Source: Methanomassiliicoccales archaeon (GTDB lineage: Archaea; Thermoplasmatota; Thermoplasmata; SG8-5; JAGLSY01). Taken from it: a stretch of 52,457 bases of DNA. Shown piece by piece: positions 5,701-26,720 of the stretch. The DNA is taken from the NCBI GenBank assembly GCA_030672365.1, contig DAOVGM010000046.1, positions 1-52,457 of the forward strand, in the 5' to 3' direction. Each line of letters opens with the position of its first letter. The stretch's first letter is position 1. The notes under the pieces are model-generated. The model saw nothing but the letters and a program-made list of their open reading frames with translations, had not been told where the DNA came from and searched no databases. The position numbers and the translations under genes are program-made.

Positions 5701-5791
5701 TCTCAAAAAAGCTCACTCCGAGTTCGAGCGCATGGGCATGAAGCTGAGGGAAGAGAAGTGCAGGAAGGCGCTGGGGGAGTTGGAGGGATGA
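2747..5791 (+). CDS. STAND-like P-loop NTPase (AAA_16 type) with roadblock/longin-like insert and C-terminal TPR array, paralog B
   Basis: The N-terminus is ELIGREDELDKL...GGEAGIGKTRL (Walker A). Walker B-like LLFLDDLQWSDPSS comes about 220 aa later. The insert reads DPDIFASMLQAVGNFIKDSL...GYGEYTILLQSHGTLSLVTVIKG. A long TPR array follows. GGAGG lies upstream and there are ATGA overlaps at both ends. Confidence 0.85.
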   Translation: MNELALQQPELIGREDELDKLSRSLDNAIEGNGSTIFIGGEAGIGKTRLVCELMKDAESKGVHMIQGWCLAESLEPLMPIKTALREARMFHLVSGDPPPKVVSAYLIDDAGMLMNKAEREESGLDPDIFASMLQAVGNFIKDSLSMMDSDSGAHLHSLGYGEYTILLQSHGTLSLVTVIKGTNSEFLIDDMKQVLAETGSKFDDWSGDISKTEELQPKISWFVDSGKYDGRFLVDDAKIKQENLFDNILLGIQRASLEKPVLLFLDDLQWSDPSSLNLIHYLARNSRNNRVLILGTYRPEDILEAHDGKTHQLEIALQGMSREDLLHKMELKRLGPEETKRIVESMLGQTAFEKDFFDKIFKDTDGSPFFILEVIKMLAEDKAIEQDEDAWRLKKELDEIDVPSKVYDVVKRRLDRLMKEQRRMLDCASVVGQEFQSEIVGRVMGVNKLQLLENLSEIEKVHRLIHYLKDKYKFDHAKIQEVLYNSIGEELRKEYHKIIADTIVELHEDNPDDVVNELAYHYCEARDERAGGYLVMAGDKAKEEFANEESIKLYANAVVLIKNEERVEVLEKLGDVQSLIGDFDKAIENFEKAKGTAEDKETKARMLRKSSDVYERMGEYDKSLELLARAKKLIEEGMAEYGKICFGEGYVHWKKGDYDNGLPLFRTALKIFEETGDDQKDIGNALRAVGNIHTSKGGYDEGVQYYEKSLAVMEKIGDQYGIATALNNIGIVHKHKGEFDRALEFQERSLEILEKIGDKQGIAMSLYNIGVAHYEKGEPVSVLEFYGRSLEILEKIGDKQGIAMSLYNIGVVYHDRGELEKALEFHERGLEILEKIGDKWGIMISLSNSAAVYHDRGELEKALEFYERGLEICLEIGEKRVSIHHHCGLAEVKLEMGDVQIAFEHAEKAIRVAIDIGAKSEEGMSHRVLGMVYREKKDRDNAIEEFEKARIILDEFGEKIELAKVFYEHGLLFKVKGEPAKAREYLKKAHSEFERMGMKLREEKCRKALGELEG
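4975..5360 (+). repeat. Intragenic tandem repeat, 120-bp unit (about 3 copies); each unit encodes one 40-aa TPR of paralog B
   Basis: Rows 4981-5040, 5101-5160 and 5221-5280 are near-identical (gcagtctggagattctggagaagatcgggga[tc]aagcagggcatagcgatgtc). The peptide LEILEKIGDKQGIAMSLYNIGV is repeated verbatim. Confidence 0.9.
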
Positions 5792-10514: not shown

Positions 10515-11639
10515 TCAACTCTTCACCAGTTCCTTCACGTCGTCGACCAAATCCTTCGAGCCGGCCCTCGTCAAAACATCAATTGCCTTGTGGATCATGT
10601 CGACTGCCAGGTCCACCCTGCCCATCTTCAAATAGACCTGGGCCAGTTCGTACCTGAAGACCCCGAGGTCATACGGAACACCGAGATGCTCCATCCTGCG
10701 CTCCGCCTTCACGAGCCATTCCATTCCATTATCTGTCCTCCCGTGGGCGTCCTCGAGCAGTCCCCTGACGAACCACGTGCAGGCCACTGCGTACTTGTCC
10801 TCTGAATCCTTCAGAACTTCCCGGGCTTTCGCGAACTCCTCCTCCGCGACGTCCAGCTCCCCCTTGCGGGCATGGCATTCGGCCAGGTTCGTGTAGAGGT
10901 ATCCGAGGCGCTTCACGTCCTTGCCGACAACGGACACGCCTTCTTCATAGGTCTCGATGGCCTTGTCGAAATCGTGCATTCGTTTGTACACTTCCCCCTG
11001 ATTATTCAGCGCCCTGGCCATGTCTGATGTGTTTCCCGCGTTCCTGTAAGTTTCGACAGACAGCTTCGCGGCCTTCAAAGCCTCATCGAATTCACCACGT
11101 TCAAACCATGCCGATGAAATTATACTGGCGGCACCGCCGGCCAACACGTACTCTTCGTTCTCCAGGCCTATTCCCAGAACCTTCCCGGCGGTTTCGATGG
11201 CCTTCCTGTTCTCACCGCTTCTCCAGAAGATGTTGGCCTTTCCGGCCAGGACATAACCGTACTGCACCCGGTTTTTAAAATTCTTGACGATGGCCTCGGC
11301 CTCGTCGAACATCACCATCGCCTTTTCTCGCTTGCCCATCTTGTTGAAGACGAAACCCGCGCGTGTCAAACCGGTAGCCAGCGTCTCGTGGTCGTTGATG
11401 GCTCGCGCACCGTCTATCACCTGGTTAATGTACATCAGGTTGTCGAAGAGCCTGCCCTGATTCTTCAGAACGTCGGTCATGGTCACGAGCAGTTCCAGAC
11501 GGTCCTTAACCTCCCGCTCGTCCAGTGTCTTACTTTCGCTGTCCTTCAACGCGGCCAGGCAGATGTCATGGGCATTGTCGTAATCCTTCGCGTCCAGGGC
11601 CTCCTTGGCCAAATTTATCTCGGTCTGAATGTCGACCAT
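10515..11639 (-). CDS. TPR repeat protein
   Basis: The 374-aa protein is made almost entirely of TPR-like helical pairs of about 40-aa period (..YVLAGKANIFWRSGENRKAIE.., ..ARALNNQGEVYKRMHDFDKAIETYEEG..). The ATG is at 11639. Confidence 0.8.
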   Translation of the reverse strand: MVDIQTEINLAKEALDAKDYDNAHDICLAALKDSESKTLDEREVKDRLELLVTMTDVLKNQGRLFDNLMYINQVIDGARAINDHETLATGLTRAGFVFNKMGKREKAMVMFDEAEAIVKNFKNRVQYGYVLAGKANIFWRSGENRKAIETAGKVLGIGLENEEYVLAGGAASIISSAWFERGEFDEALKAAKLSVETYRNAGNTSDMARALNNQGEVYKRMHDFDKAIETYEEGVSVVGKDVKRLGYLYTNLAECHARKGELDVAEEEFAKAREVLKDSEDKYAVACTWFVRGLLEDAHGRTDNGMEWLVKAERRMEHLGVPYDLGVFRYELAQVYLKMGRVDLAVDMIHKAIDVLTRAGSKDLVDDVKELVKS

Positions 11640-11674: not shown

Positions 11675-12208
11675 TTATCCAAAGACCGTCTCCATCACGC
11701 GTTTGTGCACGGCCAGGTCTCCCTCGGAATACAAAACAAAACGAATCAACTTCACGCTCTGAAGCTCCGGAATGGCAGCTTGAATCGTCGAGAAGGCCAC
11801 CTGTGTGGCCTCCTCCTTCGGATAGCCGAACGCACCTGTGGAAATAGAGGGAAACGCGATCGATGAAAGGCCGTTCGAGTCAGCAAGCCGCAAAGCATTC
11901 CGATAGCAGTCGGCCAGCAGTTCTCCCTCCGGTTTATCTCGGCCGTAAATGGGACCGAGGCAATGGATGACGTGCGGGTTCGGCAGGTTGTGGCCCGAAG
12001 TGATGACAGCTTCCCCCGGTTCAATGGGGGCCAGCGGCGCACACTCCTTCTCCAGGCCGGGCCCCGCGGCGCGGTGAATCGCACCGGCGACCCCGCCGCC
12101 CATCCTGAGCATGGCATTGGCTGCATTGACAATCGCATCGATGCCCACCTGGTCCGCGATGTTGCCCTGAATGCAATCGACAACAATACCCGATAACTCG
12201 ACCTCCAT
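11675..12208 (-). CDS. Macrodomain protein (ADP-ribose binding / O-acetyl-ADP-ribose deacetylase-like, YmdB/Af1521 type)
   Basis: GNIADQVGIDAIVNAANAMLRMGGGVAGAIHRAAG and IAFPSISTGAFGYP are canonical macrodomain motifs. Confidence 0.85.
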   Translation of the reverse strand: MEVELSGIVVDCIQGNIADQVGIDAIVNAANAMLRMGGGVAGAIHRAAGPGLEKECAPLAPIEPGEAVITSGHNLPNPHVIHCLGPIYGRDKPEGELLADCYRNALRLADSNGLSSIAFPSISTGAFGYPKEEATQVAFSTIQAAIPELQSVKLIRFVLYSEGDLAVHKRVMETVFG

Positions 12209-12214
12209 GCCAAA

Positions 12215-12979
12215 CTACCTCCTGCGTTGCAGGTTCTGCATCGCCTGCTGATACTGCTGTGCTGTAATCTGTCCGCTCTGATAGGCCACCTGCACCTTCT
12301 CTATCTTCAGCATGTTGTCGACGTCGGCATTGCACCCGGGACAGTAGTCATCGTCATCCGCGACGAACTCGCCGCAGTTCGGGCAGTCGACGCCCTCCAC
12401 TTCCTCGTACTCATCGTCGTCCAGCTCGCGGACACCGGGCCTGTAAGCCGGGGCCTTGGATTTCTTTTTGTGCCTCTCCCTCAAAATCGGGTGGCGGTCG
12501 ATGTGCGCCTCCAGAATTCTCTGCTGAAGCCTGGGTGTCGGGAACTCCCTCTCGCCCTTGACGGCCAGAACGAGCGCAGACAGCGTGCAAACGAAAGTGA
12601 TGAATGTAAGTGTCGGCCAGAGAACGCTGTTGAACAGATTAATGACAGAAACGCCCAGAGCCAGTGCCATGAAAGTCATGATAAGGGGGAAGTTGCGTCG
12701 TGTATGTAGGAGATAGAATATTACCAGGCCGGCAACGAAAATCAGGAGGTTCATCAGGGCGTTCCAGATGAATTCCAGATTCCATTCTTGTGACAAACCG
12801 TGCCAATCGAATGCCCATAAAATCGCGTCTATGAAGATGAATAAAAAGAAAATCGACGTGACGATTATAAGGTACATGCCAGCATACTGGAAATTGCTCC
12901 TATCCTCTCGTTGCAGAAACCAATCTTCCGAACTATCCTCGGTCATTTTTACCACAAATCTGTAAGTTCCCCACGGCAT
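12215..12979 (-). CDS. Membrane protein with cytoplasmic zinc ribbon and SHOCT-like C-terminus
   Basis: The first ~150 aa contain several hydrophobic helices. CPNCGEFVADDDDYCPGCN is a zinc ribbon. The tail LKIEKVQVAYQSGQITAQQYQQAMQNL resembles the SHOCT short C-terminal domain. The stop lies 6 nt from the macrodomain start. Confidence 0.6.
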   Translation of the reverse strand: MPWGTYRFVVKMTEDSSEDWFLQREDRSNFQYAGMYLIIVTSIFFLFIFIDAILWAFDWHGLSQEWNLEFIWNALMNLLIFVAGLVIFYLLHTRRNFPLIMTFMALALGVSVINLFNSVLWPTLTFITFVCTLSALVLAVKGEREFPTPRLQQRILEAHIDRHPILRERHKKKSKAPAYRPGVRELDDDEYEEVEGVDCPNCGEFVADDDDYCPGCNADVDNMLKIEKVQVAYQSGQITAQQYQQAMQNLQRRR

Positions 12980-13039: not shown

Positions 13040-14089
13040 ATGCCCAAGCAATTCAAGTGCCAGAACTGCTCCGCAATCGTCCGGTACGACCCGTCCAGCC
13101 ACGGCCTCAAGTGCGAGTACTGCGGCTCGGTGGAAGTCCTGGAAGTGAAGCTGGAAAGGCCGGAGGAGCACGACCTGTTCTCCGCCCCCGCGCATCTCGG
13201 CTGGGACGCCGATGTCAAGATAATGAAATGCGACTCGTGCGGAGCCGCACTGGCCTCGGAGGGTAAGATATCCGGAAAGTGCGCGTTCTGCGGTTCGAAC
13301 TTTGTCAAGGAACAAAAACCGAACCCGGACATAATCCGCCCCGAAAGCACGGTGCCATTCAAGATCGATTTGAACGGAGCAACCCAGAGATTCAAACGCT
13401 GGCTGGGCAAGGGATTTTTTCGTCCCGGGGACCTGAAGAAGATCAGCCGCCTTCAACTTCTTCAAGGCATCTACACGCCCTTCTGGACTTACGATTGCAG
13501 CGCCCACTCGGACTGGTGGGCGATGAGCGGTTATTATTACTACGTCTCGAAGCGGGTCAAGACCAGCCAGGGATGGAGGACCACTCAGGAGCGAAAGGTC
13601 AGGTGGGTGCCGTCGTCGGGCTCGCGAAACGGCGCGTACAACGATGTTCTGATCATCGCGTCGAAAGGTCTGGACGAGGGCATGACAAAGAGCATCTACC
13701 CATTCGAACTGTACGCCCTCGAGGCATACCGCCCCGAATTTCTGAGCGGCTGGCTGGCGGAGGAATATTCCGTCACCCTTCCCAAAGGTTGGCTCAAGGC
13801 CAGACGCCACGTCGAGAGCCGGGAATACCAGCAGTGCAAGTTCGTGGTTCCGGGAGACACGCACCGCTCTCTGAGTGTTAACACAACGCTCAGCGACGTC
13901 ACCTACAAGCACATGCTCCTGCCAATCTGGGTCGCGGCCTACCAGTACAAAAAGAAAACTTACCACTTCCTCATAAACGGGCAGACCGGCAAGGACAGGG
14001 GCGAGGCCCCTATATCCTGGCTGAAGGTCGCGGCTGTCGCGCTGGCCATCGCCGCATCGGTCATTGCCGTCTACTTCTTCGCGCGTTGA
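13040..14089 (+). CDS. Double zinc-ribbon protein with C-terminal transmembrane anchor (function unknown)
   Basis: CQNC..CEYC and CDSC..CAFC form two ribbons. The C-terminal TM is LKVAAVALAIAASVIAVYFF. The ATG is at 13040. The opposite-strand 317-aa ORF is judged a shadow. Confidence 0.65.
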   Translation: MPKQFKCQNCSAIVRYDPSSHGLKCEYCGSVEVLEVKLERPEEHDLFSAPAHLGWDADVKIMKCDSCGAALASEGKISGKCAFCGSNFVKEQKPNPDIIRPESTVPFKIDLNGATQRFKRWLGKGFFRPGDLKKISRLQLLQGIYTPFWTYDCSAHSDWWAMSGYYYYVSKRVKTSQGWRTTQERKVRWVPSSGSRNGAYNDVLIIASKGLDEGMTKSIYPFELYALEAYRPEFLSGWLAEEYSVTLPKGWLKARRHVESREYQQCKFVVPGDTHRSLSVNTTLSDVTYKHMLLPIWVAAYQYKKKTYHFLINGQTGKDRGEAPISWLKVAAVALAIAASVIAVYFFAR

Positions 14090-14967: not shown

Positions 14968-16221
14968 ATGAGAGACAAATTGGTAATAACTCAGGACCGC
15001 TTGCAGAAGATGAACGACTTTTTGCTCGACCCGGGCAACCCGCTCGTCGGGGACCTGCTGGCCGTCATCGATAAATATGGCGGTGTAAATGATATAAACC
15101 GGAAGGCGGAGGAGGCCGGCAAGCTCGAGAACCTCGTCGCGAAGCTGGATGCCAAAGGCTCAAGTTTTGTCCAAGATTTAGAATGGCTGAGCCAACAGCG
15201 TGAAGCCGGCGCGTTCATCCCGATGGAGGATTATCGCAGAAAAATCCTCGGAGACAACGTAGGCCAGTTCGCATTCGACGATGCCTTCGCGGTAACCCTG
15301 GAAATCTCCGCCTGCCAGTACTTCTCGTTCTTCATGGAGCAGGCCCGCCAGGCAATAGAAAAACAGGAACTGATGCCAGGTCGTTTCATCCGCGTGAGAG
15401 CCATGAAGGAACAGGAGGCGGACCTGGACCTGATGGCGGTACAGGCGGCGATGAAGATAATCGATGCCAGCGTGTGCGAAACACTCGATACAAGAGGTAC
15501 GGACGGCTCTAACATCCATCTCGGAGGCCCTGACACCATTACGGGCTACTTCGGAGGCGTGGGCCAGCCGAACGACCACCCCATCCAGTGGGTTGATGAA
15601 TTCCTGTATTACTACACGAACTACGGCGTCCAGCAGGTGCTGAATGTCAATCCGGGGACTGTGTTCATCGCCTACATGCTGCACAAGCTCGGCGTGAATA
15701 TCGAGTTCAAGATATCGGTCTACATGGGCAACGACAATCCGTACGCGATTTTATGGACACTCATGGCGGCCAGCCTGTTCTCGAGGGACGATGGAACCAC
15801 ACCTCTCATCGGCTTCAACTACGCGAACTCGGTGAACAACAAGACGATAGAGGTTTCGGCCAAAATCAGAAAGGCCTTCGACCTTGAAGATATCGTCAGG
15901 TTCGAGCATCACATCACGGAGACTTACAAATCCATAGTCATCCAGCCGTACGACCGCAGGGAGGAATTGGTCGAAATCGCCCCGAAGGTGAAGAACATAA
16001 GCGCGAAGCACGAGGGCGCAATCCCGGAGATCGACAAAGCCAGGGAGCATCCTTCGGACATATTGGAATATTTCCTGCCGCGGGCGGATGTAGAAGCACA
16101 GGGGCTCATGCCGGCTCTGACCCGCAACTATCTGGACAAGCACGAGGCTCTGAACAGCTCGGCAAAGATGCTGACCGAGAAGGGCGTGAGCGTTATCGCG
16201 GCGAGGAATTTGCACAAGTAA
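14968..16221 (+). CDS. Hypothetical protein (417 aa), no family recognised
   Basis: This is a long ORF with a strong SD (GGGGAGG) and composition like its neighbours. I recognise no motif. Confidence 0.6.
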   Translation: MRDKLVITQDRLQKMNDFLLDPGNPLVGDLLAVIDKYGGVNDINRKAEEAGKLENLVAKLDAKGSSFVQDLEWLSQQREAGAFIPMEDYRRKILGDNVGQFAFDDAFAVTLEISACQYFSFFMEQARQAIEKQELMPGRFIRVRAMKEQEADLDLMAVQAAMKIIDASVCETLDTRGTDGSNIHLGGPDTITGYFGGVGQPNDHPIQWVDEFLYYYTNYGVQQVLNVNPGTVFIAYMLHKLGVNIEFKISVYMGNDNPYAILWTLMAASLFSRDDGTTPLIGFNYANSVNNKTIEVSAKIRKAFDLEDIVRFEHHITETYKSIVIQPYDRREELVEIAPKVKNISAKHEGAIPEIDKAREHPSDILEYFLPRADVEAQGLMPALTRNYLDKHEALNSSAKMLTEKGVSVIAARNLHK

Positions 16222-16420: not shown

Positions 16421-16612
16421 CTATTCCTCGATAAATATCCACATCAATAAGCCGATGATGAGAAATGCAATACCGCCCAGTATCATTGTGGACTGCTCGG
16501 AAAAAGTACTGCGGAATTGCGTGGCTACAGCCATGTAAGTTCCCCCAGCCGCACCTATTATTCCGATGAATGCCAGTATCAATCCGAAGTATTTCAAATT
16601 CGCGTTTCTCAT
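16421..16612 (-). CDS. Small membrane protein (63 aa, 2 TM)
   Basis: I prefer ATG 16612 (MRNANLKYFGLILAFIGIIGAAGG...), which has a GGAG upstream. The longer track ORF adds an Arg-rich non-membrane extension that overlaps the upstream gene. Confidence 0.45.
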   Translation of the reverse strand: MRNANLKYFGLILAFIGIIGAAGGTYMAVATQFRSTFSEQSTMILGGIAFLIIGLLMWIFIEE

Positions 16613-16692
16613 TCTTTTCTCCGCTCCTAGTATCGGGATGTTGATTTGAGTATTTAAACAAATCTTGGGAATGCCCAGCGTAGCCAATACAA

Positions 16693-17019
16693 CTATTCCT
16701 CTTCGACAATCTTCTTCTCTTTCTTCTCGAACTTCAGCTTGACCCCGTGGGGCAGAAATATGGCAGCCAGTATGATTATAGCGAAGCAGATGGCGGCGCC
16801 CCATATTATCATGTCCATGACAGGCGGGTAGCTGACGATGCTGATCACGTACCAGAGCATCAGGAACAGCACCAGGAAGATGATGACTGTGATGAGGAGC
16901 GAGAAGGTCTCGTGCCTGTCCTTTTGCCAGTCCTTCTTCGTCCTCGGGAACTTGAGGCCCCAGGCAGCCAGTATTATGAAAAGAATGATCGACAGCAGCA
17001 CCAAAAGGTAGGCGTTCAT
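16693..17019 (-). CDS. Small membrane protein (108 aa, about 3 TM, Lys/Glu tail)
   Basis: Three hydrophobic helices are present. ATG 17019 lies 1 nt after the AAA+ stop codon (17021-17023), so translational coupling is likely. Confidence 0.6.
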   Translation of the reverse strand: MNAYLLVLLSIILFIILAAWGLKFPRTKKDWQKDRHETFSLLITVIIFLVLFLMLWYVISIVSYPPVMDMIIWGAAICFAIIILAAIFLPHGVKLKFEKKEKKIVEEE

Positions 17020-17020
17020 C

Positions 17021-19660
17021 CTACTTCCTCACCTTGAACGTCTTCATGAACTGCTCGGCAGAATCGATGTACTCTGACCGGATAGAGGACTCGACCAGTG
17101 CCAGCGCCTTGATGAGATGCTCTTTCTCCACCTTTTTGTCGTGGTCTCTGTTCCCGACCACCGCCATCAACTTCGCCTCGTCGACGATGGCCTCGATGTC
17201 GTTCGCCGAGTGGCCGTCGGTCTGATCGGCCAGCTGGTCCAGGAGGTCTGCATCGACATCCTCGTTTCGCGGGATGTCGGTCAGGTAGAGCTGGAAGAGC
17301 ATCCTGCGCGCTTCCAGGTCCGGCGGAGGCACATAGAACATCTTGTCGAACCTGCCCGGTCTCAGCATTACCGGATGAAGGCTGGCAGGGTCGTTCGTCG
17401 TAACTGCCACGAGCACGTGCTCCTTCGCCTCGAGGTTGTCTATCTCGTTGAGTATCTGGCTGATGGCCTTCCCTGCCTCCTGGCTCTCGATTGCGGTGCG
17501 TGAGCCGATGACATCGATGTCCTCGATTAGCAGGATAGATGGAGTATTCTCCCTGGCCCTGTAAAACACATCTCTGACAGGAAGTGAGCCGGTTGATGCG
17601 GTTCCGACGAATTCGGTCGCGGAAATCGTCTGCATCGGGATCTTGAGGTCCGTGGCAGCCGCGTGAAGGATATTGGACTTGCCGCAGCCGGGCGGTCCGA
17701 AGAGAAGGACACCGCGGCCTGTTTTCAGCTTGAAATCCGAAAGAACGTCCGGCTCCTTCACGAGGATCTCGATGTAGCCCATGATGACGCTCTTGACTCT
17801 GTCCAGGTGAACGAGTTCGTCCCAACTCACGACCCACTCGTCCTTGTCGCGCTTCTTGTGGTGCATTTTTCTTTCGAAATCGAGCTTGAGCATTTCGTAC
17901 TCCTTCAGCATGGCCAGTGATATGCTCGGCTTGACCGCCGCGGCGATTTTGAACAGGTCGTCGTTGGTAATTTCGGAATCTTTTCCGGACTTCATCGCCC
18001 TCTTCATGGCCAGCACGGCGGCTTCCTTGGCGACGTTCGCCAGGTCCGCGCCGGAAAACCTGTCCAACTGGGCGGCGACCGTTTCCAGTCCCAGGTTGTC
18101 GGCCAGAGGTCTGTTCCTGAGGTGAACTTTCAGGATATCGACGCGCTCCCGCACGTCCGGCGGCGGCACGTAGATTATCTTGTCAAACCTGCCCGGTCTC
18201 AGAAGGGCGGGGTCTATCAACTCCGGTTTGTTCGTCGTTCCCACCAAGATTATTCCGGCGGCGCTGTCCATTCCATCGAGTTCGGCCAGCATGATACTGA
18301 GAAGCCTGGGCGTCACGTCGTCGCCCGCGTAAAGGTCGCGGTGCTTCGCCATCGCTTCCAGGTCGTCGAAGAAGATGATGCTCGGCCTGCGCTCCTTCGC
18401 CGTTTCGAAGAGCTCGGACAGCTTGGTCTCGGACTCGCCGTACCACTTGGACATGATGTCGGAACATTTGACTGTCACCATTTCCACTTTTAATTCGTTA
18501 GCCAGCGCCTTCATGAGCAGTGTCTTGCCACAGCCAGGCGGTCCGAAGAGAAGAATTCCGTGCGGTGCTTCGACGCCGTACTTGTCAGAAATCTCGCTGG
18601 CCAGCAGCGGTATCATAATCGATTCTTTAATGTCCTCCTTGACGTCGTCCAATCCGCCAATCAATTGAAAACTGGACTCGCCCAGGCTGTCCATCTGCGA
18701 GATCCGCGTGCCGATACCCCTCTCCATCTCCAGGTTCTTGAAGTAGGTGAAGAAGAACTCGTTGGCCGCGCGGCCTACCAAAATCGAGGAAATAACAATC
18801 GGGATGATGAGAAGTCCCGTAACGATGCCCTCCGCGGTCGGCGTGAGCAACAGAAACAGCGGAATGAAATACGAGCCAGCAAAGATTCCCGCAGGAATCA
18901 ATGACTGCTCGAATCTGAATTTAAGCGATTTATTCTCCCGATTAAAGAATAGGTAGACGAAGTAAACGGCCAGGCCCCACAGGATTATCTGCATCAGGGG
19001 GGCGACATGAAGCCCCAGGTTGTTGACGATGACGTCACCCATCACTGTCAGGTCAGCACCGGTCATCTCTCCCAGCGCGCTGCCCAGGTGTCCGGGGTTG
19101 AACCAGGTCAATGCCGGCTTGTAGAATATCATGAAGCTCGTTTCGTGCACAGGGCCGACGAACATGCCGGCAACCGTAAGGTTGCCACATGTCACCATGA
19201 ACGTGAGGAATACGCCCGACACAACCACGACCGACAGCGAAAGCAGGAGCGGAAGCATGCTGGCCGATATGACGGGAACGATCATCGAAAGACCGAATCT
19301 GGACAAGAAGATCGTTATAAAGACGAGGTAGCCCACCTTCCATTCGAAGAGCGATATCATGAGGATGACGAGCGAGAACAGCATCATGAAGAGGCCGAAC
19401 TCGGGCGTTTGATAACCCGCCGCTCCGATGACGAAGATGCTGAGCAACACCATGGCCAGATACGGAAATCTATATGCCACGATTGCGATGATGAACGCGA
19501 TCGTGATGGCCATCCAGATAGGGTAGAAAGGTATCCATGTAGAGCCCAGAAGCGCGAGAATGAAGAACAAAAGCACAATCACAAGCTTCGGCTCGCGGGA
19601 CTCCTGCGCGACCATCTGGCTCATGGTTTTCGGCATGACCTTCCGCATGAGGTCATTCAT
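17021..19660 (-). CDS. Polytopic-membrane-anchored double AAA+ ATPase (classic-clade, CDC48/FtsH-like modules)
   Basis: The N-terminal ~300 aa carries about 9 hydrophobic helices. D1 has GPPGCGKT, IIFFDDLE and PALLRPGRFD. D2 has GPPGCGKS, ILLIEDID and PVMLRPGRFD. ATG 19660 overlaps the upstream stop (ATGAATGA). Confidence 0.85.
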   Translation of the reverse strand: MNDLMRKVMPKTMSQMVAQESREPKLVIVLLFFILALLGSTWIPFYPIWMAITIAFIIAIVAYRFPYLAMVLLSIFVIGAAGYQTPEFGLFMMLFSLVILMISLFEWKVGYLVFITIFLSRFGLSMIVPVISASMLPLLLSLSVVVVSGVFLTFMVTCGNLTVAGMFVGPVHETSFMIFYKPALTWFNPGHLGSALGEMTGADLTVMGDVIVNNLGLHVAPLMQIILWGLAVYFVYLFFNRENKSLKFRFEQSLIPAGIFAGSYFIPLFLLLTPTAEGIVTGLLIIPIVISSILVGRAANEFFFTYFKNLEMERGIGTRISQMDSLGESSFQLIGGLDDVKEDIKESIMIPLLASEISDKYGVEAPHGILLFGPPGCGKTLLMKALANELKVEMVTVKCSDIMSKWYGESETKLSELFETAKERRPSIIFFDDLEAMAKHRDLYAGDDVTPRLLSIMLAELDGMDSAAGIILVGTTNKPELIDPALLRPGRFDKIIYVPPPDVRERVDILKVHLRNRPLADNLGLETVAAQLDRFSGADLANVAKEAAVLAMKRAMKSGKDSEITNDDLFKIAAAVKPSISLAMLKEYEMLKLDFERKMHHKKRDKDEWVVSWDELVHLDRVKSVIMGYIEILVKEPDVLSDFKLKTGRGVLLFGPPGCGKSNILHAAATDLKIPMQTISATEFVGTASTGSLPVRDVFYRARENTPSILLIEDIDVIGSRTAIESQEAGKAISQILNEIDNLEAKEHVLVAVTTNDPASLHPVMLRPGRFDKMFYVPPPDLEARRMLFQLYLTDIPRNEDVDADLLDQLADQTDGHSANDIEAIVDEAKLMAVVGNRDHDKKVEKEHLIKALALVESSIRSEYIDSAEQFMKTFKVRK

Positions 19661-20822
19661 TCTTTCCCACCTCCTTCTTCGAGTCCTCGATTGCTTTCTT
19701 CTTCATCGATTCGTCTGCAGAACGTCTCTTTACGAGCCGCCTGGTGTCCTTCGGCGGTTCGGGAACTTCCTCAGCCTCCGGAGTATCTTTCGTTTCCGGC
19801 CCGGAGGATGCCCCGGCCTCCGGAATGACTGGCTTGCCCGAGGTAATGGATTCAACCATGTCAGGGCTCAGGATGAGCTCGTCCTTCCTCTCCTCCCTCT
19901 GTCTTTCCTCGTTCAGAACGTATGCGAACGCCGGTATGGCCAGCGCACTAATGACTATCATCGAGACCAGTATCGCCGTATCGGGATACCATTTCGAGTT
20001 GTCCCTGACCCCTTCCTCGTCGCGCGTGTAATCGAAAGGATACTTGAACTGGACTATGCCGGCAAGGCTGTAATCGACGCTCTCGGACTTCGTCAGGCTG
20101 CTGTATTCATCCCAGGCGATGACCCAGAATGAGATGTTCGTACCCGCGGCGTGAAAGTTGCCGGGAATCTCGCGCTCCATTGCCGTCAGATTAATCCTGT
20201 CAAAGGTCCAGCCGCCGGATTCCGTTATCCCGTTGCTGGGTGTGTACAAGAAATAAAGGTTTGCGCCCTCGATGGGCACTCCCTCTATTGATTCTATCGC
20301 AACGGTCATCGGCTCCGTCGCATTGGGAACGGTCGGCTCCCAGTTCATGCGGATGTTCTCCTCGAAATCGTCGTGCACCCAGCCGCCGGTCCTCTCCTCG
20401 CCCACAACTGTCAATACGACGTCAGGCGAAAGCATGGGCACGTTGTTGTAGTCCAGCACGTTCAGGTAGAACTTCACGACCGTGCCGTTATACATGTAGG
20501 GCCCGATGCTCGTCCTCATGACAGTCTCGTTGATACGCTGGAACGTCCGTCCCCCTGTGGAAATCGCACCGCCGGGATAAGTGATCTCGATTTCAGCATA
20601 CGCGATTTGAATAGTGACATCTGGCTCCCTCGAGGTAACTGTGATGACAATCGGCTCGGAAGGTTTCGGCACGACAGGGCTGTAATCGAGCTCGATGTTG
20701 TCCTCGAAATCGGAGTGCTGCCATCCGATGGAGGTCTGCTGGCCCAAACCGAAAAAACAAAACAAGGGCATCGAGAGCATGACAACGATGAAAGCGATTG
20801 TGAACACTCTGGCTGTCTTCAT
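19653..20822 (-). CDS. Type I membrane protein with signal peptide, two tandem ~115-aa extracellular repeats, TM and acidic/basic cytoplasmic tail
   Basis: I prefer ATG 20822 (MKTARVFTIAFIVVMLSMPLFCFFGLG, a signal peptide). The repeats begin WQHSDFEDNIELDYSPVVPKPSEPIVITV and WVHDDFEENIRMNWEPTVPNATEPMTVAI. The TM is TAILVSMIVISALAIPAFAYVL. Confidence 0.65.
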   Translation of the reverse strand: MKTARVFTIAFIVVMLSMPLFCFFGLGQQTSIGWQHSDFEDNIELDYSPVVPKPSEPIVITVTSREPDVTIQIAYAEIEITYPGGAISTGGRTFQRINETVMRTSIGPYMYNGTVVKFYLNVLDYNNVPMLSPDVVLTVVGEERTGGWVHDDFEENIRMNWEPTVPNATEPMTVAIESIEGVPIEGANLYFLYTPSNGITESGGWTFDRINLTAMEREIPGNFHAAGTNISFWVIAWDEYSSLTKSESVDYSLAGIVQFKYPFDYTRDEEGVRDNSKWYPDTAILVSMIVISALAIPAFAYVLNEERQREERKDELILSPDMVESITSGKPVIPEAGASSGPETKDTPEAEEVPEPPKDTRRLVKRRSADESMKKKAIEDSKKEVGKNE

Positions 20823-20830
20823 TTGAAACC

Positions 20831-22135
20831 TCACGTGCTTACCTTGATGGCCTGTCTGATGGCGACCTTCGGTTTAACTCTTGTCCTTATTCTGTCTCCC
20901 AATGCCAGTCCCGCGAAACCTGCGAAGAGGTATTGGGCGGGAATCGCCGTGGCCAGCGGGATGCTGGGCGGCGGAGGCGGCGGAGGCGGTGGCGGAGGCG
21001 GCAGTGTCGGTGCCGGCGTCGGCATGCTGGACGGCGCCATCGGTAACGGCGGGTCCAACGGGGCCGGGGGCGCCTGGACAAACCTGTTCCCCAGGAAAAT
21101 CGAAGCCATCTCGAACATCTCGCCTGTTTGGTCCTGTGGCAAGTACGAGAACAACTCAACGGTTCCCTTACCGAATCTGAAATAAGATGCAAACAGGATC
21201 TGACAGTCTGACTCGGATGCGGTCAGCATGACCTTCATGCTCGAGGTGGCCGGCGTCGATGCCACGACCTCACTGCCCTCAACAACTATCTGACTCGAAC
21301 CATAATACTGTGAAAGCGATTCCCCGACATTCGTGAAATTGGCAGTGTAGCTGTCAGACCTCGGAACGTGCGTGCTGACCATACCGGGGAACACCGCTTT
21401 CACATCTTTAATTGCCTTTCCAATGAATATCACATTCCGCCCGCTGGCTACCGCGGTTTTGATGGCAGCCTTCAACCCATAATACTTGTACATTTCACCG
21501 TTGGTACCCGGGTCTTCAAAGATTATCAGGTCATTATCCAAAATAGGAGATGGGTCCCAGTCTAAATGGTATATTTGTTTCGTCGTATGTGGTATATCCA
21601 TCCTATCCAGCAAAACCTTCGAAAGACTTCTCTGCTCGTAAGCTTCTGGCTTAGCAACAATCAAAACTTTCGTTGGCTCCTCGATTTTATAAACCCTGTT
21701 CCACATGAACGTGGCACTGAGAGTATGAATGGTTACTTCGGTGAAATGTGCGCTCACGTCATTCACCACGGTTTCGTTATAGCCAGTAAGAATGATCGGG
21801 CCGCCATAGTAATACACCCCTTCCGGATGAACATCGGTCTGCATGAAGGCGTTGCCGTCCATATCCTCCGATTCGATGAGTCGATAGCAGGTCGTTTCAT
21901 TTCTCAGAAGCGCGTGCATGAATCCAAACACGAGAAGCCTGTCGTTCTGTTTGTCGTCCATAGGAAGCACCAAATCGCCGGGATTAAAGGGCAGGGACTC
22001 ATATCTCTCCTGGGCAGCCACGATTGCCTGGACGTTACTCGGCATGGCTGATAGAACGAGAACTAAGACCAGCAGAACGAGCCCGAAGCAGGAGTAAAAT
22101 CTCCCGATTCTTGTGACTCCCCTCTTTCGAAACAT
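20831..22135 (-). CDS. Secreted protein with Pro-rich stalk (12 consecutive Pro) and short C-terminal hydrophobic anchor
   Basis: I prefer ATG 22135 (MFRKRGVTRIGRFYSCFGLVLLVLVLVLSAMPSNVQA, a signal peptide). The C-terminus reads APPAPLDPPLPMAPSSMPTPAPTLPPPPPPPPPPPPSIP...YLFAGFAGLALGDRIRTRVK. Confidence 0.65.
   Translation of the reverse strand: MFRKRGVTRIGRFYSCFGLVLLVLVLVLSAMPSNVQAIVAAQERYESLPFNPGDLVLPMDDKQNDRLLVFGFMHALLRNETTCYRLIESEDMDGNAFMQTDVHPEGVYYYGGPIILTGYNETVVNDVSAHFTEVTIHTLSATFMWNRVYKIEEPTKVLIVAKPEAYEQRSLSKVLLDRMDIPHTTKQIYHLDWDPSPILDNDLIIFEDPGTNGEMYKYYGLKAAIKTAVASGRNVIFIGKAIKDVKAVFPGMVSTHVPRSDSYTANFTNVGESLSQYYGSSQIVVEGSEVVASTPATSSMKVMLTASESDCQILFASYFRFGKGTVELFSYLPQDQTGEMFEMASIFLGNRFVQAPPAPLDPPLPMAPSSMPTPAPTLPPPPPPPPPPPPSIPLATAIPAQYLFAGFAGLALGDRIRTRVKPKVAIRQAIKVST
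20966..21001 (-). repeat. (CGG CGG AGG)-type 9-nt microsatellite encoding Pro12
   Basis: The plus strand reads gggcggcggaggcggcggaggcggtggcggaggcgg. Its reverse complement encodes 12 CCN codons. Confidence 0.85.
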
Positions 22136-22277
22136 TTCTTTTGCTCCTGGCCAATAATTATAAGACCCCTTATATATCATTTTCCCAACAAAATAGTAAC
22201 AATAAATATATTTACCTTGAACTGTATATGTGGACGATACCAACACGAGGGGTGAGTGAACGCCTATAGATATTGGC
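22136..22277. promoter_or_regulatory. AT-rich divergent promoter region
   Basis: There are several TATA-like boxes: cttatatatca at about 22168-22178 for the minus operon, and aataaatatattta at about 22200-22214 for the plus gene. Confidence 0.35.
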
Positions 22278-23969
22278 TTGAACTATCTTATTTACGAGGA
22301 GAGGACAGACGAGACCTTCAAATTATTCGACGAAGTAGTCAAATCTGGAGTGCCTGGCCTCTGCATTACGACGGTATATCCCAAGAAGCTGAAAAAAATG
22401 TACGGCCTGGACGAAAAGGCGAAGATTTACTGGCTGTCGGATTCCAGCAACGAGCCAGACACGTTAGTGCCCACTAGACTCGACTTCGAAATCACGAGGG
22501 TCATAAACAAGTTCATTAAGGACAATGAAGAATCGATTCTCCTCCTCGACGGATTCGCTTATCTCACGCTCGAGAACGAGTATGACAAGGTTCGGAAATT
22601 TGTCAAGCGAACGAATGACCTGGCTTCCGTGAATAATGGCACAATTATTGTCGTGGTGAACCCGCAGTCATTCAACAAGGAAACCGTTACGACGCTCTCG
22701 CGTGATTTCGACAAGGTTGGTGATGTCGGCGACTTTTCAGGGAAGCCGGCGGCGCAACCGCAACCCGCGGCGCCGCAGCCAGCTACCCCGCAACCGATGG
22801 CAGCCCCCCAGACACCCACCTCGCCGCATGACCTCAGAATCGACGCAGGCGTCGACGAACTGGTGGGCCCCCCTGTAGTGGAAGAAGAACCCGAGGATGA
22901 CCTGCCGGACCTTGAAATCGAGGATATATATCTCATTCATCGAAGCACCGGCACCCTTATTCAAAGAAGGACATGGCGTGACCAGGACCTAATAGACCCC
23001 GACCTCGTGGGCGGTATGTTCCAGGCTATCCTGGACTTCATCAACAACTCGTTCGCCGCTGGCGAGGTATCAGACTTCAGCAGAATCGACGTCAAAGGAT
23101 ATATCATTCTCATTGCGGACGGCGATTTCGTATCTGTGGCTCTTGTTTTCTCCGGCAAGGTCGAAGAGTACATCAACAAGGCCATGAAGGATATCAAAAA
23201 GGCACTCAAGTCCAACATCGGCGATGTCGAGGTCAGCTACAAGAACATCCTCGCGGAATACGACGGGGACGTGAGCAAACTTCGCGGCACCAGAAAGAAC
23301 CTGGACTCCCTGTCAATGGACATCAACGCCGCCCTTGAAGAACATCTCAAGGGCAGAATTAGGAAGAGAAAATTATCACAGATGGAAAAGAAACAGGTCA
23401 GCGATAAGTTCTCCCAGGCCGTGAGTATGGGCCGTCAGAAGAAATTCGATGAAGCCATTAAACTTTATGACTCAGCTTTGGGCATAGACCCGACCCACAC
23501 CGAATCCCTGTTCAACAAAGGTGTTATTTTACAGATACTGGGCAGAATCGACAACGCACTGGAATGCTATGATACGGTCATTCAAATCAACCCAAATGAT
23601 AGTGAGGTCTGGGGAAACCGCGGAATAGCCCTCAGGTCAATCGGCCAGGTCGACGAGGCAATCGATTCATACGACCAGGGCCTTCAGATAAATCCCGGCG
23701 ATTCCAGTCTGTGGAGCAACAGGGGCATCGCGCTCAGAAGCGTTGGGAGGATCAAGGAGGCGATAGAGTCTTATGACAACGCACTTGAAATCAATCCGCG
23801 GGACGCCGGCGTTTGGAGCAATAAAGGGGTAGTACTAGGAAGCATGGGTCTTATGAAAGAGGCAATCGAGTGCTACGACAAGGCGCTTTCCATCGACCCG
23901 GGCAGACGACTAGCTTCGAAGAACAGAGAAATTGCCATCAAGGAGATCGAAAGGAGGGGACTGACATAG
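22278..23969 (+). CDS. DUF835 domain - roadblock/longin-like module - TPR protein
   Basis: The start is TTG; there is no in-frame ATG before residue 40. The DUF835 pattern is YLIYEE..GLCITTVYPKKL..IYWLS..ILLLDGFAYL..IIVVVNP. A Pro/Ala/Gln linker follows. The roadblock-like module is IYLIHRSTGTLI..DPDLVGGMFQAILDFINNSF..GYIILIADGDFVSVALVFSG. Then come 34-aa TPRs (INPNDSEVWGNRGIAL etc.). Confidence 0.8.
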   Translation: MNYLIYEERTDETFKLFDEVVKSGVPGLCITTVYPKKLKKMYGLDEKAKIYWLSDSSNEPDTLVPTRLDFEITRVINKFIKDNEESILLLDGFAYLTLENEYDKVRKFVKRTNDLASVNNGTIIVVVNPQSFNKETVTTLSRDFDKVGDVGDFSGKPAAQPQPAAPQPATPQPMAAPQTPTSPHDLRIDAGVDELVGPPVVEEEPEDDLPDLEIEDIYLIHRSTGTLIQRRTWRDQDLIDPDLVGGMFQAILDFINNSFAAGEVSDFSRIDVKGYIILIADGDFVSVALVFSGKVEEYINKAMKDIKKALKSNIGDVEVSYKNILAEYDGDVSKLRGTRKNLDSLSMDINAALEEHLKGRIRKRKLSQMEKKQVSDKFSQAVSMGRQKKFDEAIKLYDSALGIDPTHTESLFNKGVILQILGRIDNALECYDTVIQINPNDSEVWGNRGIALRSIGQVDEAIDSYDQGLQINPGDSSLWSNRGIALRSVGRIKEAIESYDNALEINPRDAGVWSNKGVVLGSMGLMKEAIECYDKALSIDPGRRLASKNREIAIKEIERRGLT

Positions 23970-23979
23970 GTGATGTCAC

Positions 23980-25302
23980 ATGATTGAGAAGGGGAAGAAT
24001 CATTTGATTTTTGAGTCCAGCACGAATTACACGATGGAAATGTTTACCGAATTCGACAAACACGGGACACCGTGCATCATGGTCACGACAAATCTGCCGA
24101 AGAAGATAAAAAAGGAATTCAATCTCAAACAGGTTGAATTTATCTGGCTCACAGAAGCGGACGACCCGAAGGCCCTGAAAGGACCCATAACCGATGAGCT
24201 ACGGGATTTTGTCAGGAACAACAAAGGCTCGGTCATTTTTATCGATGAAGTCGAGTACTTGATTCTCGAGAACGGCTATGAAGTCGTCGAGGAGTTTTTG
24301 GTGGGATTGGGGAATATAACTCATGAGTTCGGAGGAACACTCATAGTTCCGCTCGACCCCAATTCGATTACCGAAGAGATTTCAAAAGCCCTATCCAAGA
24401 AGTTTGACCAGATAAAGGATGTGAGGAACATTATGCTAACAGGGAACAAGGTAGAATGCCCGGAGTGCGGGGCGATGTGGCATACCAACATCCCAGTCTG
24501 CGACATCTGCGGTTATGAATTCAAGGCCGACAGGGTAAAACCGTCGCTGGCTTCGGAGGAGAAGAAGATCCCGCGTATCGAGGCGAAGATATCCGGTAAA
24601 CTTCGCTCCGGGATGCCCGTGCCCGAACCAATGCCAGAACCAATACCAGAATCAATGCCTGAACCGGTACGAGAACCGGAGCCGGAACGCGAACCCGTGG
24701 ACAAACCCGCAGCGTACGACCATGCCGTCAGACCGCAGGACGACTCCTGGTTTAATAGAGGCGTCGCCCTTGAAAAAATGGGCAAGAGCGAGCAGGCGAT
24801 CGAGTGCTTCGACAAGGCGCTGGATGAGAACCCGAATGACTCCTGGGCCTGGTTTAACAAGGGCGTGTCATTGCACCGTCTTGGTTTGCTGGGCGAGGCC
24901 CTTTTCTGTTATGATAAAGCTCTGACCTACAACCCGAACGACTCGGACCTGATGTCCAACAAGGGCATTCTTCTCAGAACGCTGGGCAAGACCGACGAGG
25001 CACTGGAATGCTACGAACGCGCCCTCGAGCTGAGCCCGCACGACCCCGGTATCTGGTCAAATCTGGGAGTCACATATCGTGTTCTGGGCATGGTCGACAA
25101 GGCTTTGGAGGCTTACAATAAAGCCCTGGAGATCGACAGCCAGGACGTAGGTGTCTGGCTGAATAAAGCGGCGGCACTGCAGTCCGAGGGAAGATTCGAT
25201 GAAGCCATCCAGTGCTATGAATCCATACTCAAGATCAATCCATATCATCCGGTCGCATTGCGAAACAAGGAATTCGCAATGGGGCGGTCGCTTCGCAGCT
25301 AA
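23980..25302 (+). CDS. DUF835 domain - zinc ribbon - TPR protein
   Basis: The DUF835 pattern is HLIFES..PCIMVTTNLPKK..FIWLTE..VIFIDEVEYL..LIVPLDP. CPECG..CDICG is a zinc ribbon. The linker is Pro/Glu-rich (PVPEPMPEPIPESMPEPVREPEPEREP). Five to six 34-aa TPRs follow. Confidence 0.8.
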   Translation: MIEKGKNHLIFESSTNYTMEMFTEFDKHGTPCIMVTTNLPKKIKKEFNLKQVEFIWLTEADDPKALKGPITDELRDFVRNNKGSVIFIDEVEYLILENGYEVVEEFLVGLGNITHEFGGTLIVPLDPNSITEEISKALSKKFDQIKDVRNIMLTGNKVECPECGAMWHTNIPVCDICGYEFKADRVKPSLASEEKKIPRIEAKISGKLRSGMPVPEPMPEPIPESMPEPVREPEPEREPVDKPAAYDHAVRPQDDSWFNRGVALEKMGKSEQAIECFDKALDENPNDSWAWFNKGVSLHRLGLLGEALFCYDKALTYNPNDSDLMSNKGILLRTLGKTDEALECYERALELSPHDPGIWSNLGVTYRVLGMVDKALEAYNKALEIDSQDVGVWLNKAAALQSEGRFDEAIQCYESILKINPYHPVALRNKEFAMGRSLRS

Positions 25303-25917: not shown

Positions 25918-26009
25918 AACCGGCGGATTGGGGATTCAAATAAAAGGTTTTCCCCCCCATCTTTTATACTTAAACTTCCATTATGATACTGAATAAATAT
26001 CTGGAGGGC

Positions 26010-26720
26010 ATGGGAATGGTCGAGAAAATTAAGACTTATATCGAGGGTTTTGACGAGATTTTAGGCGGCGGTATACCTACTGGCCACGTAGTATTGGTAT
26101 GCGGCACCCCGGGCACAATGAAGACATCGCTCACGTTCAGCATGATGTACGAGAACGCCCGTCGGGAGGGTCGTCGAGGCCTCTACATTTCCCTCGAGGA
26201 AGGGTATGAAGGTCTCAAGGGGGCAATGGAAGACCTCGGGATGACTGGCATCGACGAGTTGGAAGTATACATGGTGGACGTCGGAAAGATCCGCATAACC
26301 CACAAGGAAGAGGAGCACGGCCGCAACTGGCTCCAGATTATCGAGAAGTACATCAGGAAGAGGGTTCAGGAGGACGAGTTCGACATTCTGGTAATCGATT
26401 CGCTGGCTGCCCTTTATTCACTGACCGAATTGAAGCATCCCAGGGTCGAGTTGTTCCATTTTGTCCGATTTCTGAAAGAGCTGAAATCTACTGTAGTTCT
26501 CATTTCGGAGATAAGCCATGGCAGTGTCCAGATGGTCGCCAATGACGAGGATTTTCTTGTCGATGGAATTCTGTATCTCAAGCTGCACGAAGTCGGGGAG
26601 GCCGATATACAATTGAGGATATCATGCGTCAAGATGAGGCGGACCCAACACGACAGGGGCTGGCTCAGGCTGATACACAGGGTCGACAAGTTTGTGGCTC
26701 ATCCAGTCATCTCAGAATAA
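26010..26720 (+). CDS. KaiC-like / RecA-superfamily single-domain ATPase, paralog 2, deviant Walker A
   Basis: GGAGG lies 4 nt before ATG 26010. GFDEILGGGIPTGHVVLVCGTPGTMKTS carries the deviant Walker A. ILVIDSLAAL is the Walker B. It is collinear with 9667..10362. Confidence 0.8.
   Translation: MGMVEKIKTYIEGFDEILGGGIPTGHVVLVCGTPGTMKTSLTFSMMYENARREGRRGLYISLEEGYEGLKGAMEDLGMTGIDELEVYMVDVGKIRITHKEEEHGRNWLQIIEKYIRKRVQEDEFDILVIDSLAALYSLTELKHPRVELFHFVRFLKELKSTVVLISEISHGSVQMVANDEDFLVDGILYLKLHEVGEADIQLRISCVKMRRTQHDRGWLRLIHRVDKFVAHPVISE

Follow-up and report, generated by a model that had tools for sequence, protein, structure and literature searches.

The window analysed here, the whole 52,457-nucleotide (nt) stretch of contig DAOVGM010000046.1 from a Methanomassiliicoccales archaeon (assembly GCA_030672365.1), carries four adjoining minus-strand genes, g1 to g4, which make up a conserved operon with translational coupling, found only in Thermoplasmata and Methanomassiliicoccales. 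The g3 product is a Cdc48/VAT-type tandem AAA+ ATPase in which the soluble N-domain is replaced by a new module of about ten transmembrane (TM) helices, and the other genes encode a stalked surface protein (g1), a type I membrane subunit (g2) and a small membrane protein (g4). As a whole, the g1-g4 system looks like an undescribed cell-envelope machine, whose function we infer. The features are listed below, with lengths in amino acids (aa) and with the kind of evidence in brackets (ORF, open reading frame).

22136..22277, no strand: AT-rich divergent intergenic region between g1 and a DUF835-TPR gene (sequence read directly)
20831..22135, minus strand: g1, stalked surface protein, 434 aa (ORF and translation)
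19653..20822, minus strand: g2, type I membrane subunit, 389 aa (ORF, hydropathy, internal repeat)
17021..19660, minus strand: g3, ATPase, 879 aa (ORF, PF00004 matches)
18770..19660, minus strand: N-terminal membrane module of g3, aa 1-297 (hydropathy and alignments)
17861..18658, minus strand: first AAA module of g3 (D1) with lid, aa ~335-600 (PF00004 and PF17862)
17021..17818, minus strand: second AAA module of g3 (D2) with lid and C-terminus, stop codon included, aa ~615-879 (Pfam, PDB match)
16693..17019, minus strand: g4, 3-TM membrane protein, 108 aa (ORF and hydropathy)
16421..16612, minus strand: g5, 2-TM ORF, 63 aa (ORF and hydropathy; no homologue in the related loci)

The conserved operon and its ATPase

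A first-pass annotation, made by a model from the letters of the sequence, had described five tightly coupled genes on this strand, and all five ORFs are present. Direct reading of the junctions places the g2 ATG 8 nt after the g1 stop, lets g2 and g3 overlap by 8 nt in ATGAATGA, and leaves 1 nt between the g3 stop and the g4 start, all as annotated. The divergent region upstream of g1 (22136-22277) contains TATA-like boxes, with GGAG ahead of the g1 ATG, and is likely to be the promoter region; a scan for bacterial (sigma-70) promoters and terminators was uninformative, the host being an archaeon.

The order g1-g2-g3-g4 is kept in every related locus of sufficient length, namely in five metagenome contigs and 18 species-representative genomes, so that the co-conservation expected of a functional unit is borne out. 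With one gene order throughout the related loci and a fusion of two of the genes elsewhere, the arrangement goes far beyond what chance would give. An exhaustive profile search with the TM module of g3 among 1.84 billion representatives gave 35 homologues (E≤1e-3), and six were found among 5.8 billion clusters, all in Thermoplasmata metagenomes. A scan of 185,579 species genomes gave 18 loci, exclusively in metagenome-assembled genomes of Thermoplasmata, Methanomassiliicoccales or 'Proteinoplasmatales'. In every close locus g2 directly precedes g3. The two genes form one ORF of 1293-1434 aa in a sister clade (L021-L024) whose g3 is ~40% identical, and a g2-type ectodomain is found at the N-terminus of 13-14 long family representatives, roughly half of the family (g2 profile, E 1e-38 to 1e-82). 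A g4 homologue directly follows g3 in 17 of the 17 loci that extend far enough, the distant clade included (16 detected by tblastn and that of L022 by ORF calling and clustering). The unit thus comprises at least four protein families that lack a current annotation, the TM module, g1, g2 and g4, none of which matches a Pfam or NCBIfam family. On one JGI contig (L001, 1168-3811) the g3 orthologue is split into genes of 407 and 468 aa, which is probably due to a frameshift or an assembly error inside D1.

The hydrophobic N-terminal 300 aa of g3 are followed by two AAA modules (PF00004), and a lid (PF17862, AAA_lid_3) accompanies each of them. D1 has the Walker A motif GPPGCGKT, the pore loop SKWYGESE, the Walker B motif IIFFDD, the sensor-1 motif TTN and the arginine fingers RPGR, and D2 has the Walker A motif GPPGCGKS, the pore loop EFVG, the non-canonical Walker B motif LLIED and an RPGR, with the protein ending in FKVRK. 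Comparison of 36 full-length members showed the D1 Walker A core (GxxGCGKT), pore loop (S[K/R]WYGESE), sensor-1 Asn and RPGR to be invariant, the D1 Walker B being D[E/D] throughout and DD in the window protein. In the same 36 members the Walker B of D2 varies (E/T/D/S followed by D/E/N/H; ED in the window protein), its pore-loop aromatic residue is mostly replaced by Leu or Met, and its sensor-1 Asn is retained in only half. Of the two complete AAA modules annotated at first, D1 is therefore canonical save for its DD Walker B, but D2 is degenerate. Because the motifs of D1 are invariant and those of D2 are not, D1 is predicted to be the motor ring, with a structural or regulatory role probable for D2.

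D1 begins ~35 residues past the last TM helix, indicating that its entry face abuts the membrane. Enzymes of the Cdc48/VAT type take up substrate at the D1 face and release it through D2, and with D1 at the membrane transport in this direction would go from the membrane to the cytosol. The geometry of g3 thus fits an extractase.

The best PDB sequence matches of both AAA modules are to Thermoplasma VAT (5vc7/5g4f, E 4e-118), and both are nearer to VAT D2 than to VAT D1. Against the curated model TIGR01243 g3 reaches 408 bits (cut-off 802.65), and against TIGR01241 (FtsH) 369 bits in the AAA part only (cut-off 600). No CDC48 N-domain (CDC48_N, CDC48_2) was matched in Pfam, a protease domain was found neither in Pfam nor in NCBIfam, in agreement with the annotation, and the penultimate Tyr of an HbYX motif is not conserved at the C-terminus of the 36 members. 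Judged from these comparisons, g3 stands outside the CDC48/VAT family while working like it.

The hydrophobic block of g3 spans aa 25-297 by hydropathy. From hydropathy, the helix pattern of an AlphaFold2 (AF2) model and the topology we predict about ten TM helices with both termini inside, instead of the about nine first annotated; the annotated overlap with g2 stands. An even number is called for because the cytoplasm must hold the basic N-terminus as well as the AAA modules, and because the g2-g3 fusions need an odd total. Under this topology the basic loops 62-66, 105-110 and 240-252 lie on the inside. Conserved turn motifs are WIPFYP, FPYL, AAGYQxPEFG, SLFEWxxGY and GPxH, and the residues invariant family-wide at helix turns are P44, F45, P47, W49, Q84, E87, F88, G89, W107, G123, P129, F179 and P221. 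The module has no match in Pfam or NCBIfam even at E≤10, and aligning its halves with hhalign revealed no 5+5 repeat (probability 0.6%). The AF2 model, built from seven sequences, is unreliable, with a predicted local distance difference test (pLDDT) score of 45, and Foldseek with this model returned only noise (best E 0.46, TM-score <0.2).

Weak relatives of the TM module carry other cytoplasmic domains: a single AAA module (P0044), a KaiC/RAD55-type ATPase (P0042 from Nezhaarchaeales, E 8e-8), or a coiled-coil and Zn-ribbon region (P0047). Such fusions make the module look like a platform in the membrane to which ring ATPases are attached. P0042 has a second KaiC-like gene upstream and lacks g1 and g2 partners. 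On the contig of P0042, a Cdv cluster (CdvA, a 265-aa gene and Vps4/CdvC; L025, 11204-13993, minus strand) is located ~1.5 kb downstream on the opposite strand, a proximity that we treat as coincidence.

Co-encoded proteins and neighbouring genes

The annotated signal peptide, Pro12 stalk and C-terminal anchor of g1 were all recovered, the anchor as a weakly hydrophobic helix followed by a basic tail. The signal peptide (aa 1-38) precedes an alpha/beta head and a beta-sandwich (aa ~43-348), a GNRFVQ motif and Pro-rich stalk with the Pro12 run (aa 349-392), a conserved Gly-rich, weakly hydrophobic TM helix, AIPAQYLFAGFAGLALG (aa ~393-413), and the basic cytosolic tail DRIRTRVKPKVAIRQAIKVST. Among nine orthologues the mean pairwise identity is 74% in the stalk, 69% in the TM helix and 69% in the tail, compared with 50-52% in the head. 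The AF2 model of g1 has a pLDDT of 73 overall and of 80-94 in the core, and Foldseek assigned the head to the class I glutamine-amidotransferase-like (flavodoxin-like) fold, with top matches at E 1e-6 to 1e-4; the best are STM3548 (2gk3), a ThuA-like protein (1t0b), the GIFT domain of IFT52 (5fmr) and the trimerisation domain of GH42 beta-galactosidase. The Foldseek searches proposed at first were thus informative for the g1 head but not for the TM module. Neither g1 nor eight orthologues match a Pfam or NCBIfam family at E≤10, and by sequence g1 could not be placed in DUF4350, GldG or ThuA, the likeness being at the level of the fold only. As no Cys is invariant among the nine orthologues, g1 is not an amidotransferase.

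In the sister clade (L022-L024) the g1 position is occupied by a protein with a vWA head (PF00092, E 1e-9 to 1e-13), which has a polyproline stalk as in g1, the anchor LFAPFIGLGMGE and a cytosolic tail of 45-50 aa ending in GYxxNER. The anchor pattern LFAxFxGLxxG(D/E) is common to both proteins. Since two heads of ligand-binding type share one conserved stalk, anchor and tail, these comparisons argue that the C-terminal part of g1 is the portion recognised by the machine.

As annotated, g2 is a type I protein with a duplicated ectodomain. An N-terminal signal sequence and two ~110-aa beta-rich units (35% identity over 110 aa, E 6e-18) with the motif GW.H.DFE.NI...P..P are followed by one TM helix (aa 284-302 by hydropathy) and a cytoplasmic tail of ~85 aa, acidic or basic, the length and sequence of which vary among orthologues. 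No match was found in Pfam, and a profile search of PDB sequences gave nothing below E 0.27. The fusions of g2 with g3 in many relatives are of the Rosetta-stone type and indicate that g2 is a physical part of the complex; g2 is accordingly a built-in subunit of the ATPase complex rather than a client. The three TM helices annotated for g4 were confirmed and are predicted to run N-out, C-in; its cytosolic loop (KFPRxxxDWxKxRxE) is conserved and its C-terminus is acidic.

The inclusion of g5 in the operon could not be upheld. It is separated from g4 by an 80-nt spacer that holds a TTTAAATA box, and tblastn (E≤0.01) found a homologue in none of the 24 related loci, the syntenic L009 and L010 included, where the gap between g4 and the downstream gene (~140-165 nt) is too short for g5. 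For lack of a homologue in any related locus we rejected g5 as a fifth subunit. It has only a sub-threshold match to DUF5671. It probably lies outside the system and may be a lineage-specific small gene or spurious.

Further genes recur around the operon in other loci. In 10-11 of them, outside the window, a ~340-aa gene lies directly upstream of g1 on the same strand. Its motifs ESGSM, IIHR and GDNN are invariant, its top PDB match is SEC11A (E 0.0036) and all nine members match TIGR02228 below the cut-off (best E 4e-5), features that point to a divergent signal peptidase I of the archaeal/ER (endoplasmic reticulum) type. The position of this SEC11-like gene ahead of g1 ties the operon to exported proteins. 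The SEC11-like genes (L011 3595-4599, L002 3921-4973 and eight further loci) have a ~100-aa insertion and a C-terminal TM helix with a Pro/Glu-rich tail, and in one clade the gene adjoins a divergently transcribed, secreted M28 peptidase of ~1100 aa. A secreted M28 peptidase is found beside the operon in nine loci and NosD/Big_5 proteins in five. In the sister clade the gene for a Big_7/Big_13 immunoglobulin (Ig)-repeat protein of 2189-2411 aa lies on the same strand, shortly before the vWA gene and the g2-g3 fusion (L023 744-7313, L024 76-7311, L021 114-7160). This giant protein has a C-terminal TM helix followed by a cytoplasmic helix-hairpin-helix domain resembling that at the C-terminus of the RNA polymerase alpha subunit, which is odd for a surface protein.

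In the window, g1 is flanked divergently by two tandem paralogues (22278-23969 and 23980-25302, both plus strand), which combine an N-terminal DUF835 domain, a Pro/Gln-rich or Zn-ribbon linker and 5-6 TPR; their DUF835 weakly matches KaiC-like ArlH/FlaH and DUF7504. This arrangement is common to L006, L009 and L010 and absent from the other clades, where signal peptidase and M28 genes are found, and we thus rejected the DUF835-TPR and KaiC-like neighbours as conserved partners. Two single-domain KaiC/RecA-like ATPases (PF06745; 9667-10395, minus strand, and 25983-26720, plus strand) are located within 10 kb of the operon, and by analogy with the P0042 fusion a functional link is possible.

Convergent to the operon, 14968-16221 (plus strand) encodes a 417-aa protein without a Pfam or NCBIfam match, ~72% identical to its L009/L010 counterpart. 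Two uncharacterised zinc-ribbon proteins are encoded at 13040-14089 (plus strand) and 12215-12979 (minus strand), the 349-aa one having CxxC pairs towards its N-terminus and a TM helix at its C-terminus. The adjoining genes encode a macro-domain protein (11675-12208) and a TPR protein (10515-11639). At the start of the window (15-8583, plus strand) three consecutive large genes, for products of 911, 1014 and 941 aa, specify proteins of the STAND-like AAA_16 NTPase and TPR-repeat kind, the first of which shows nothing but TPR matches. Relative to the rest of the window, the GC and AT skew of these genes is markedly positive.

Proposed activity and alternatives

The most likely activity of the system, which we put forward tentatively, is to use ATP to pull on the stalked surface protein g1 or to extract it. 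The four proteins would form one envelope complex, with a g3 hexamer held in the membrane through ~60 helices, g4 as a small membrane subunit and the Ig-like ectodomains of g2 as an extracellular crown. In this arrangement the D1 ring would be turned towards the membrane, and D2 would play a structural or regulatory part like that of D2 in NSF. By its Gly-rich TM helix g1 might dock in the membrane module of g3, its tail of 20-50 residues reaching the D1 pore, and ATP hydrolysis by D1 would then pull on this tail. As a result, g1 could be extracted or retracted from the surface by a dedicated dislocase, 'ERAD-like' (ERAD, endoplasmic-reticulum-associated degradation) yet without ubiquitin, or force could be passed via the rigid polyproline stalk to the ligand-binding head. 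If extraction or pulling is the true activity, the system would provide a simple, ubiquitin-free model of a Cdc48-type motor acting on a membrane-anchored client and would bear on the origin of ERAD-like dislocation.

The first-pass annotation had suggested that both surface proteins are clients. For g2 this did not stand, given its fusion to g3 in about half of the family and its variable tail; a conserved TM helix and tail, as would be expected in a client or handle, are found in g1 only.

Several points weigh against this reading. The DD Walker B of D1 may slow hydrolysis, and with the HbYX motif lacking there is no obvious hand-over to the 20S proteasome. In the TM-module model, at its pLDDT of 45, neither a channel nor a docking site for g1 is visible, and since a weak, KaiC-fused relative occurs without g1 and g2, the module alone need not entail a client of the g1 type. 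That the g1 tail touches D1 is purely our inference. A dedicated motor for the removal of one single protein would be unusual, and the giant Ig-repeat protein in the sister-clade operon could be the real client.

In a bolder form, which we regard as possible but doubtful, the system would be an unrecognised class of archaeal envelope machine, in which a 60-helix ring and a Cdc48-like double ring carry the g2 crown, the stalk, TM helix and tail of g1 run through the centre, and ATP drives retraction of, or tension on, an adhesin or receptor head. If true, this machine would be a prokaryotic counterpart of ubiquitin-independent retrotranslocation, or a force transducer across the envelope with a logic like that of TonB-ExbBD.

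Instead of pulling inwards, the motor might assemble or export large surface proteins, g1 and g2 being structural outer parts of a secretion, assembly or envelope-remodelling machine with the giant Ig-repeat protein, the M28 peptidase or the NosD/Big_5 proteins as candidate cargo. The component types match those of the predicted arCOG01314-MoxR-vWA system discussed below, large secreted proteins adjoin many loci (the giant Ig-repeat protein in L021, L023 and L024, M28 peptidases in nine and Big_5 proteins in five), and a signal peptidase I homologue is present in 10-11. Nevertheless we consider this rather unlikely, as classic-clade threading from D1 to D2 would here run from membrane to cytosol, the wrong way for export, and as the large neighbours differ by clade and are absent beside the window operon; moreover, the ATPase of the described analogue is a soluble MoxR and not Cdc48-like.

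A general dislocase for membrane-protein quality control, a protease-less analogue of FtsH or Msp1 that feeds the proteasome or LonB with g1, g2 and g4 as adaptors or regulators, is a poorer candidate and on the whole improbable. Archaea lack FtsH, a membrane-anchored ring with an intact aromatic pore loop towards the membrane would suit this task, and the AAA modules resemble VAT, a proteasome-associated unfoldase. However, a family so rare and confined to one lineage (present in 18 of 185,579 species genomes, with 35 homologues of its TM module among 1.84 billion representatives) does not suit housekeeping. It also lacks the HbYX motif for proteasome docking, and its partners are specific, co-evolving surface proteins with heads of ligand-binding type, not typical adaptors.

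Less probable again is an integrin-like device for inside-out or outside-in signalling or for adhesion, in which the ATPase would set the conformation or clustering of the stalked vWA or amidotransferase-like head, or would be informed by it of ligand binding, with no net translocation of polypeptide. It would account for the sister-clade architecture, in which a stalk, one TM helix and a short conserved tail follow a head of the vWA/MIDAS (metal-ion-dependent adhesion site) type, and for the retention of the rigid polyproline stalk with both head types, and it is in line with the fusion of a weak TM-module relative to KaiC-type, that is signalling-type, ATPases in Nezhaarchaeales and with the DUF835-TPR and KaiC-like genes adjoining the window operon. 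Substrate threading is favoured instead by the invariance of the KWYGESE pore loop, and the DUF835-TPR neighbourhood is confined to the close relatives L006, L009 and L010.

That the TM module is an exosortase/archaeosortase-like transpeptidase or an intramembrane protease that processes the g1 anchor, the AAA rings clearing the cleaved peptide, is very improbable: R121, C158 and H172, invariant in the closest homologues, recall a Cys/Arg/His triad, and the end of g1 resembles a tripartite signal (stalk, weak TM helix, basic tail), but the triad was rejected because C158 is replaced by Ser or Asn and R121 by Pro or Lys in P0034 and P0019, with replacements in P0042 too, and H172 is lost in P0037, while invariance across the family is limited to Q84, E87 and residues at helix turns that are Pro, Gly, Trp or Phe, and no exosortase, rhomboid, CPBP or S2P match was obtained at E≤10.

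Comparison with known systems

Cdc48/p97-type double-ring unfoldases are soluble and brought to membranes by adaptors, and to our knowledge the membrane-integral AAA machines of prokaryotes are single-ring proteases (FtsH, LonB). We found no description of a membrane-embedded or polytopic Cdc48-like ATPase in the literature, as far as the incomplete searchable literature goes, and the TM module and its partners fall in no curated family.

With Cdc48, p97 and VAT g3 shares two tandem classic-clade AAA modules with lids, which align to both VAT and p97, and, in D1, the KWYG pore loop, the two Arg fingers of the SRH and the sensor-1 Asn. It differs from them in having the ~10-TM membrane module instead of an N-domain, in its degenerate D2, the lack of HbYX and the missed TIGR01243 cut-off, and in having surface and membrane partners of its own encoded beside it. 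Operon structure and gene fusion tie this Cdc48-like enzyme firmly to extracellular proteins of the Ig-like, amidotransferase-like and vWA kinds.

FtsH, LonB and Msp1/ATAD1 resemble g3 in placing an AAA ring at the cytoplasmic face of the membrane with the pore entrance towards the bilayer, which supports the predicted pulling of membrane-anchored polypeptides into the cytosol. Unlike FtsH and LonB, g3 has no Peptidase_M41, Lon_C or LonB match in Pfam or NCBIfam; compared with all three, FtsH, LonB and Msp1, it has two AAA rings instead of one and ~10 TM helices per subunit instead of 1-2, its phyletic range is narrow, and the extracellular domain is the separate or fused Ig-like g2.

NSF, with an active D1 and a structural D2, and Pex1/Pex6 share with g3 the combination of one motor ring with one degenerate ring and the membrane-associated clients, but they are soluble and recruited by adaptors and have neither a polytopic membrane domain nor extracellular partners. 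The core of type VII secretion (EccB/EccC/EccD/EccE/MycP) is comparable by analogy only. Its parts are a membrane ATPase bearing TM segments, a polytopic membrane protein, single-pass proteins whose extracellular domains are large, small TM subunits and a membrane-anchored processing protease, to which the SEC11-like gene of 10-11 loci would correspond. EccC is an ATPase of the FtsK/SpoIIIE type and not an AAA protein, and no relationship in sequence or fold was detected.

Methanomassiliicoccales and other Thermoplasmata include gut methanogens, and if the proposed activity is true, the operon would add a new envelope system to their poorly understood surfaces.

The earlier comparison with FtsH and LonB omitted the closest described analogue. 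By component types this is the archaeal arCOG01314 (DUF4350)-MoxR-vWA complex, itself a prediction, which was proposed for secretion or membrane remodelling and comprises a membrane-anchored protein with a flavodoxin-like ectodomain, vWA proteins, Ig-like and small membrane proteins and an AAA+ ATPase (Makarova et al. 2015, PMC5898192, section 3.2). The bacterial Bat/MoxR-vWA operons are grouped with it as related described systems. Like arCOG01314/DUF4350 proteins, g1 has a signal peptide, a flavodoxin-like ectodomain of the GldG- or beta-galactosidase-trimerisation-like kind (by the fold of the model) and a single C-terminal TM helix, although it matches neither the PF14258 nor the TIGR03521 profile at E≤10. 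The ATPase of the described complex is a soluble, single-ring MoxR (COG0714), whereas here the membrane-fused, double-ring, Cdc48-like g3 is the sole ATPase. Flavodoxin-like and vWA heads co-occur in the described complex but alternate at one operon position here, the vWA protein being absent from the window operon and replacing g1 in L022-L024. The flavodoxin-like and vWA heads of the MoxR systems are thereby linked to a different class of ATPase.

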